Of a stretch of DNA of 64,000 nucleotides, positions 16,166-17,038 are shown piece after piece. The notes beneath the pieces are model-generated. The model saw only the letters and a program-made list of their open reading frames with translations, was not told the origin of the DNA and ran no database searches. The stretch comes from a virus. Position 1 is the stretch's first letter, and every line of letters begins with the position of its first letter. Position numbers and translations under genes: made by a program. The stretch lies in IMG/VR virus record IMGVR_UViG_3300043571_000425; one strand, given 5' to 3'.

Positions 16166-17038
16166 ATGTCACACCCAATTTACAGCCGTCAACAACTCGG
16201 TGGCAAAAAACTTTCAAAAGTAAAACAAATTGCTGCTGAATTAGGAGTCGTTCCATCTGGCAACAAAACTTTCTTGGTTAGTTGGATTGATGCAATTGTT
16301 GAGCATCAAGCCGCACAAGTCCAGAAGATTCAAGCCGTAGAAGCAACCATTGATTTTGAGAGTGAAAGTTTTGAGGGTTCTACCCAGCCTTACATGGTTT
16401 TGGTTGGCGGCGAGATTGTCCACCGTGCTGCAACCTACCAACAAGCAGAAAGATATTGTAAATGGCACTCACTCACTCTCGTTGATAGCCAAACCTTAGC
16501 CCAAAGTGAACTTGAAACGGAGATGGAAGTTCAAAGCATTGCTGCAACAGAAGCTGAAAATATTCAATTTGCCGATATTGACTTCGGACACCATGAAGCC
16601 GTCATTTATGGTGAGGTAGTCGCTACAATAAGCACGATTTTTGATCGTGATACTGATAATATGAGTTGGCGTGCTGAGGGTAGCATTGAGCCTCGCAGTT
16701 TTGACTGCTATGAAGAGGCGGAAACCTATGTAAAATCAGAATACATGAATAAAATCATTAAATTGCATAGGGGGTCGGGTCGCATTGGCGATGATGAGCG
16801 CGGCAGTGGTCGCATAACTCCCCCTATCGGAGACATGGGTATGAGCATCGAAGACACCCATTTTCAGGACGAAATCGGACAGCAATACTCAGTTAGGATT
16901 CATGGGATTCTCGCAGGAACTATCTGGCTATCCGACGACGACGGCTGGACAATGGATGGTTTGTATTTTCAAGATGACTGGCGACCTGTAGCCAGAGAAC
17001 TAGCGATGCTGACACGCCGTGACTTGGTAGCAGCTTAG
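16166..17038 (+). CDS. early protein carrying two PatS/HetN-type RGSGR motifs
   Basis: 290 aa; N-terminal SAP/Rho-N-like segment LSKVKQIAAELGV; ...LHRGSGRIGDDERGSGRITPP... encoded at 16766-16816. Confidence 0.6.
   Translation: MSHPIYSRQQLGGKKLSKVKQIAAELGVVPSGNKTFLVSWIDAIVEHQAAQVQKIQAVEATIDFESESFEGSTQPYMVLVGGEIVHRAATYQQAERYCKWHSLTLVDSQTLAQSELETEMEVQSIAATEAENIQFADIDFGHHEAVIYGEVVATISTIFDRDTDNMSWRAEGSIEPRSFDCYEEAETYVKSEYMNKIIKLHRGSGRIGDDERGSGRITPPIGDMGMSIEDTHFQDEIGQQYSVRIHGILAGTIWLSDDDGWTMDGLYFQDDWRPVARELAMLTRRDLVAA

Follow-up and report, generated by a model that had tools for sequence, protein, structure and literature searches.

The phage protein P0001 (290 amino acids), encoded at 16166-17038 (+) in a 64,000-nucleotide stretch of viral DNA (the window), carries the pentapeptide RGSGR, and to judge from its homologues a single copy of this motif is an old, selected feature of the protein. 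We consider it probable, at roughly 60%, that P0001 is the phage's imitation of peptides that inhibit HetR and that it holds infected cells back from differentiation.

RGSGR within and beyond the P0001 family

Translation bears out the predicted double occurrence of RGSGR: copy 1 reads HRGSGR (residues 201-206, 16766-16783, +) and copy 2 reads DERGSGR (residues 210-216, 16793-16813, +). The codons differ, as had been noted, being AGG GGG TCG GGT CGC at 16769-16783 and CGC GGC AGT GGT CGC at 16799-16813. Copy 2 occupies the site that is conserved throughout the family, and copy 1 is an extra one, probably from an HRGSGR allele. Single-motif alleles exist among the homologues (HRGSGR in P0080, DERGSGRITPPI in P0022/P0028), and the tandem looks like a local duplication at the junction of two such alleles. 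It recurs in 2/69 homologues, P0002 (90% identity, six member sequences) and P0034; because a separate cluster of six sequences at 90% identity has it, it is no assembly slip. Reads of the DNA run X2 gave depth in 30/30 bins with no listed difference in the motif, and DNA matching the window stems from lake and freshwater metagenomes.

A third RGSGR (24529-24543) lies in a 57-aa ORF (24478-24651, +). In all six frames of the window the pattern RG[ST]GR occurs only at 16769, 16799 and 24529, and with a chance rate of 6.2e-7 per position 0.012 occurrences of RGSGR are expected over the 19,401 ORF residues. The claim that three motifs far exceed chance thus stands as a count; as a claim of three independent events it falls, the tandem being a local duplication and the third copy being confined to one lineage. 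The third motif is present at 4/10 loci of the 57-aa gene, all four encoding exactly the protein of the window, and the other six have KNNGR or RGNAK in its place, so that RGSGR appears here as a recent state of one lineage. The nearest virus record (G001:C1) has two family paralogues (10750-11562 and 53872-54570), both with ERGSGR, together with the 57-aa ORF.

The AlphaFold2 model of P0001 (mean pLDDT 75, pTM 0.40) predicts a two-helix N-terminal domain followed by three beta-sheet/helix modules, the second and third of which are joined by the linker that carries RGSGR. Linker residues 204-223, between the folded modules, have a pLDDT below 50, and the RGSGR linker is likely disordered. The three modules resemble each other in the model, with weak hhalign probabilities (58%, 17% and 0.2%), and long homologues have a Cys/His cluster inserted between modules 1 and 2. 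Residues 6-53 (16181-16324, +) are a candidate basic HeH (Rho-N/SAP/LEM-like) domain that may bind nucleic acid; its match to 1a62 (Z 6.3, rmsd 2.6, 47 aligned residues) and several SAP/LEM rows (Z 4.7-5.3) do not reach the Z of 8 from which the tool's matches are trusted, and it has no Pfam match. The domain has a pI of 9.7 and P0001 overall is acidic (pI 4.7); the N-terminus is basic and helical, with a best 19-residue hydropathy mean of 0.93. P0001 has no family match in Pfam, NCBIfam or PHROGs and no match in Foldseek PDB or the PDB sequences. BFVD returned two close matches only, one a named Nodularia phage protein, and the Atlas returned clusters without names.

RG[ST]GR is present in 54/69 P0001 homologues; among the remaining 15, 11 have one to three substitutions, one has a replaced linker and three do not cover the site. 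At the viral loci it was found in 29/39 (absent in eight and cut in two, so that eight of the 37 covering the site are without it). Among 27 representatives at <70% identity, 23 have the motif (9/11 at 50%), which is the top five-residue window of the protein (0.90, vs a protein mean of 0.53 and 0.41 in the linker flanks). Codon pairs from 25 loci showed 49% synonymous and 15% amino-acid differences in the motif vs 15% and 56% in the flanks, therefore the constraint acts on the protein and not on the DNA. A cause at the DNA level (repeat element, HIP1) was rejected, as the motif codons vary freely and include both TCN and AGY serine. The -1 residue is free (E in 49, G in 14, H in 12, K in 1, Q in 1), the +1 residue is I, L, V or D, and one member (P0011) has the PatX-type variant RGTGR. 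The DE prefix is conserved at 56%/41%. What holds of the proposed conservation is therefore the single motif, under protein-level selection; neither the doubling nor the DE prefix is a conserved feature.

Shortened architectures keep the motif elsewhere, behind module 1 or module 2 or C-terminally (19/148 distant matches). It is absent from the other 129/148 distant matches, from 8/8 distant genome loci (L012-L019) and from 28 further genome loci. In a clade of about ten sequences it has decayed (RTSGR, SATGR, RVSGR, SGSGR or RGSSR), and separate losses are seen in P0007, P0064 and P0063/P0072. Plasmid-type and chromosomal relatives have mainly the N-terminal part in common with P0001 and are without the motif. 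By this distribution, the motif marks the phage branch of the family.

The cultured Aphanizomenon phage CL131 encodes a family member, gp103, that ends in CDERGSGR plus 10 residues, and a member of an unrelated family, gp091 (L056:11980-12375), that begins with HRGSGR; the Nodularia phage homologue compared beside them is without RGSGR. In 30/30 matches of gp091, which are 52-92% identical, the motif stands close to the N-terminus; the words of this search included the motif. With the core alone as query, 8/8 close matches had it, and motif-less relatives exist; gp091 had no PHROG match. The Cylindrospermopsis phage CrV-01T has an unannotated 18-codon ORF ending in ERGSGR-stop (MH636380, 101231-101287, +, which is L230:1462-1518). 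It lies directly 5' of a distant gp091 relative and has an identical inverted copy near 74640-74694. This predicted ORF is the best PatS-like candidate that we found. CrV gp121, searched alone, returned no relatives.

In a group of RHH-like proteins (L147-L154), HRGSGR is found at the RHH-like C-terminus in 3/8 loci, whereas in 2/8 it opens the gene that follows, N-terminally, and 3/8 have RGSSR. A frameshift shifts the HRGSGR DNA between the RHH-like gene and the next one, and an internal ATG would yield a 10-residue peptide. In G422, the full-length family member has SATGR and a truncated 68-aa paralogue (L165:8497-8703, -) has HRGSGR; the paralogue keeps the first residues and the same promoter type upstream, and as a single example it found no relative but itself. 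A membrane-protein cluster (276-279-aa ORFs, in G423, G004 and G426) has RGTGR in 3/5 members and RDTGR in the others.

Over 15 phage sequences, 337,848 aa in sum, we counted 22 occurrences of RGSGR, which fall into six clusters, and three of the 29 other permutations together; these phages were chosen for carrying the family, so that the 15 of 22 counts from the P0001 family are circular, and the other five clusters include a chance-like capsid match, the recent 57-aa state and the singleton paralogue. A plausible RGSGR ORF is absent in 5/7 cultured phages of heterocystous hosts (A1, N1, A-4L, Cr-LKS3 and kac65v151), and in 9 further cultured cyanophages it was present only in CrV-01T. Nor was a plausible RGSGR ORF present in the control phages LMM01, Mic1 and S-CBS2, whose hosts we take to be hetR-less, or in PaV-LD, four genomes giving little power. 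The recurrence of RGSGR in unrelated phage genes adds support to the proposed mimicry.

Host and transcriptional setting

Spacers point to a Dolichospermum-genus cyanobacterium as the host. Four window matches are spacers within CRISPR arrays (38/38, 36/37, 32/34 and one weaker) in 3/20 Dolichospermum-genus genomes, and the 36/37 match, to a spacer of genome G410, has its protospacer inside the P0001 gene (16229-16265, +). The nifH gene of these three genomes is split, its two parts lying some 6 kb from each other, as would fit a heterocyst excision element. HetR is encoded in 3/3 and keeps R223, E253, E254, D256, D270 and D278, the six PatS-contacting residues taken from PMC4649674. A non-heterocystous host, which had been named as evidence against the idea, was checked for and not found: the Dolichospermum-genus host bears hetR and nif. 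Among 401 cyanobacterial-phylum genomes, 22 match the family, and hetR is present in 21/22 of these vs 101/401 overall. The named genome matches are Nostocales in 10/11 cases, the other being a 6.5-kb contig of a Sphingobacteriaceae MAG that is probably mis-binned; with tblastn, 10/10 phage and 19/19 plasmid matches were Nostocales. A host PatX-like 78-aa ORF with a hydrophobic N-terminus and a Pro-rich HRGSGR is located about 7 kb from hetR (L295, G410:C1 near 3029778). Degenerate DNA patterns for a PatS mini-gene found none in the host genomes, with a pattern frequency not above reversed controls.

A sigma70-type promoter (TTGACA-18-TATAGT, 11/12 consensus) precedes the P0001 gene at 16051-16080 (+). 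The original prediction called it conserved and early-type. Conservation holds, as TTGACA was seen by eye about 100-115 nt 5' of the gene in 17/17 homologous loci; the promoter scan by itself is not above chance (4 found vs 5.1 expected). The early status of the gene we infer from the gene layout. The 5' leader contains a hairpin (16092-16137, +; -18.3 kcal/mol, z -3.06), and by eye similar inverted repeats are present at homologous loci. Divergent from the gene, as stated originally, is an HTH repressor-like gene (15761-16000, -) with Pfam HTH matches below the curated cut-off and a PHROG regulator match (E 8e-8). Next downstream and in the same orientation is a DUF5895 gene (17051-18019, +; E 4e-27), which as a query found no cultured phage.

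In the RNA runs, just 6-8% of the window's words are present. RNA contigs of X17 and X18 cover 15798-16020, on the repressor side, and a piece from X20 lies at 17076-17253; X20 also has two short matches that we ascribe to chance, and none of the RNA pieces among the matches listed covers the motif. A promoter-like segment of 16051-16098 is repeated at 13746-13793, ahead of ORF 13853-14710, and another promoter-like pair (33604-33664 and 34513-34573) lies ahead of different genes. Such repeats before different genes suggest regulons.

What the motif may do

We propose that P0001 is the product of the first gene of a repressor-flanked operon in a phage of about 100 kb that would infect Dolichospermum/Aphanizomenon-type hosts. 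Expressed early from the strong promoter, it would present X-RGSGR, as a short linear motif, on a linker open to contact, imitating the host's HetR-inhibiting peptides. The motif may then enter the HetR hood cleft and free HetR from DNA, more likely after proteolytic release than within the intact protein. The infected cell would thereby stay out of the heterocyst or akinete fate, cell types that CL131 does not infect, and neighbours might likewise be held back if a short peptide crosses the septa. For the folded modules a function of their own, older than that of the motif, is probable, because plasmid and chromosomal relatives have similar domains without the motif. Wu et al. in 2004 reportedly found that overexpression of RGSGR within other proteins inhibits differentiation, and Elhai and Khudyakov are said to have surveyed RGSGR proteins in 2018.

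In the hood cleft of HetR, PatS-6 is bound as an added beta-strand; its two arginines lie on E253/D270/D278, and HetR leaves the DNA (PMC4649674). The binding rule is XRGSGR, with a free -1 residue, and the variable -1 residue of the phage motif is as this rule predicts (PMC4649674). HetR is the sole target of RGSGR identified (PMC6316738). Infection by CL131 does not affect heterocytes and akinetes, which are insensitive (PMC7466765, citing earlier work), and lysis occurs at about 36 h (PMC7466765); therefore there is time for an infected cell to differentiate beyond the reach of the phage. N2 fixation and nifH levels of existing heterocytes are unchanged during CL131 infection (PMC7466765), which we counted against the mimicry.

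High-affinity binding to HetR uses the free N-terminal amine of the -1 residue and the C-terminal carboxylate, and N-terminal extension weakens it (PMC4649674). Uncleaved cytosolic PatX gives no two-hybrid signal with HetR, and PatX requires a peptidase (PMC12756182). The NusG protein of the host carries an embedded RGSGR in 5/5 Dolichospermum-genus genomes looked at and in G005 (nusG loci L294, L296-L299 and L321), that is, in hosts that have heterocyst genes, so an embedded motif is insufficient. Proteolytic release is probably needed because of the affinity for free ends, the non-interaction of intact PatX and this embedded RGSGR in NusG; the position of the phage motif, in a flexible linker or close to one end of the protein, would fit such release. 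Besides the low affinity of embedded motifs, we counted against the mimicry the decayed clade, the motif-less distant relatives and the 5/7 cultured phages without the motif. The original interpretation is thereby supported in part: motif conservation and host speak for it, and RGSGR in host NusG, the uncleaved PatX and the decay of a clade speak against it. A broader version, which we hold only tentatively and think rather doubtful, is that phages whose hosts are heterocystous bloom cyanobacteria repeatedly evolved imitations of the host's Turing-type inhibitor, ranging from early proteins tagged with the motif to a stand-alone mini-gene of PatS type. Once released, the peptide would cross septal junctions and suppress differentiation of uninfected neighbours as well, the virus thus redrawing the pattern of the filament so that its cells stay infectable.

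The motif is fused to a putative DNA-binding HeH domain, and P0001 could bind HetR to recruit it to phage DNA through that domain, or to read the nitrogen or differentiation state for a choice between lysis and latency, with a block of heterocysts not the main purpose. The gene lies within a repressor/divergent-promoter switch region, an RHH-like regulator ends in HRGSGR at 3/8 loci, and G427 is classed as a provirus. We nevertheless find such a tether or sensor improbable: the motif also occurs in a stand-alone 18-codon ORF and, N-terminally, in gp091 and its unrelated family, a tyrosine integrase is present in 0/5 records tested (three of them at least 90% complete), CL131 is virulent in behaviour (PMC6293099) and peptide binding frees HetR from DNA (PMC4649674). 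The loop of host NusG offers a different comparison. In the host genus it reads KRGSGRGRGH. The loop is specific to cyanobacteria and touches DNA in the elongation complex, the reported contacts being K113, R118 and R120 (PMC10895346). The phage motif might on this basis be a NusG-loop mimic or an RG-type contact with nucleic acid or RNA polymerase, and P0001 a lambda-N-like factor for its own operon, its gene being first after a promoter and hairpin and its N-terminal domain Rho-N-like. Lambda N is small and disordered and has an Arg-rich helix that binds RNA; its gene comes first behind a promoter divergent from a repressor, where an RNA hairpin is also found. The P0001 gene has this layout; the protein is of another type, with folded modules and a pI of 4.7. 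In the alignment the phage motif keeps R118 alone of the three contacting residues, with E, G or H at K113 and no GRGH continuation, and its conserved G-S pair falls where NusG varies. RG[ST]GR itself was found in 1/17 hetR-bearing genomes sampled, the NusG loop elsewhere being mostly RRYGR, RGSSK or RGTGK. As the 18-codon ORF would also be left unexplained, we judge a transcriptional role of this kind unlikely.

Embedded motifs bind HetR poorly (PMC4649674, PMC12756182), PatX needs a peptidase (PMC12756182) and the DE prefix is like that of PatS-8. These observations would suit a decoy that engages the PatS/PatX peptidases, transporters or HetL immunity and shifts the pattern, possibly towards more heterocysts near infected cells, instead of acting on HetR directly. 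We give this little credence, since DE is conserved in just 56%/41%, the core that is conserved coincides exactly with the pentapeptide in contact with HetR and RGSGR has no second known target (PMC6316738). The losses across several lineages, the one chance-like capsid match and the recent third motif of the window would be expected if RGSGR were merely a Gly-rich turn inherited in one phage family, without a partner. The motif is, however, the best-conserved window although it lies in a low-pLDDT linker, and it is kept through domain loss and found in unrelated families, which makes a neutral or structural origin very improbable.

Returning to the imitation of HetR-inhibiting peptides, P0001 may work like HetN, PatS or PatX yet belongs to none of them. 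HetN of Anabaena PCC 7120 has an internal ERGSGR in a larger protein, presumably processed out (PMC7761841, PMC12756182), and P0001 also has an internal ERGSGR (residues 211-216). It differs from HetN in having no ketoacyl-reductase domain (no Pfam or NCBIfam match), in being phage-encoded and in its sigma70-type promoter. PatS-8 is CDERGSGR (PMC5812504); its last seven residues are the DERGSGR of P0001, CL131 gp103 has all eight, and the CrV-01T ORF is of PatS-like size with a terminal ERGSGR. Unlike PatS, P0001 has 290 residues with the motif internal, 74 residues from the end, and no DIF1 (TCCGGA) is near its gene, the sole TCCGGA of the window being at 20037. Copy 1, HRGSGR, is as in the host PatX-like protein, and the family includes an RGTGR variant; P0001 is without the signal peptide (by hydropathy only) and Pro-rich run of PatX, and with the host PatX-like ORF 10 residues alone align (E 0.065). 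The cyanobacterial NusG loop has the same pentapeptide in the host genus, with a different conservation pattern and no homology beyond the motif. The sporulation sigma factors of Bacillus phages are similar in that a host-like developmental regulator disturbs a differentiation that may be a refuge from infection (10.1101/2021.11.12.468384). They are whole homologues, whereas here a five-residue morphogen mimic would sit on unrelated phage proteins, in a multicellular filament.

In the searchable literature, beyond which lie subscription papers and supplements, we found no report of a phage-encoded RGSGR. Looking up terms in PMC6293099, 10.64898/2026.02.14.705889, PMC10811720, 10.1101/629832 and PMC9284123 gave none either, and in the CL131 genome paper (PMC6293099) heterocy, PatS, gp103 and gp091 had no hits. 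If the mimicry is real, a virus would imitate a morphogen of prokaryotic multicellular development. Phage infection would then be tied to heterocyst and akinete formation, so to the nitrogen input and overwintering of Dolichospermum/Aphanizomenon/Raphidiopsis blooms. The proposal lends itself to direct tests, since the motif is available in two cultured phages (in gp103 and gp091 of CL131 and in the CrV-01T mini-ORF) and PatS-insensitive hetR mutants exist, and the phage motif variants form a natural mutational scan. A separate question that the NusG finding raises is how a host copes with RGSGR in a housekeeping protein of high abundance.

Other genes of the window

By its gene content, the window belongs to a tailed cyanophage. 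It encodes a terminase (18281-19780, profile match) and contains 32 HIP1 sites. A sigma-70-type factor with a zinc ribbon (23288-24424, -) is divergent from the 57-aa RGSGR ORF and is hit by the 38/38 host spacer. Type IV CRISPR-like csf2, csf3, CysH-like and csf1 genes (28618-32422, NCBIfam matches below the cut-off) lie far from the array. The region 41510-44700 contains a C2c8/TnpB-like gene, an anti-repeat (43534-43569) and 14 CRISPR repeats. The array has two spacers of 20 nt only and one spacer that includes a partial repeat, and the spacers had no full match in the 14 other phages. The called start of a 4135-aa ORF (44694-57101) overlaps the last CRISPR repeat. The sole Rfam match of the window is a tRNA (21214-21284, -; 39.2 bits).
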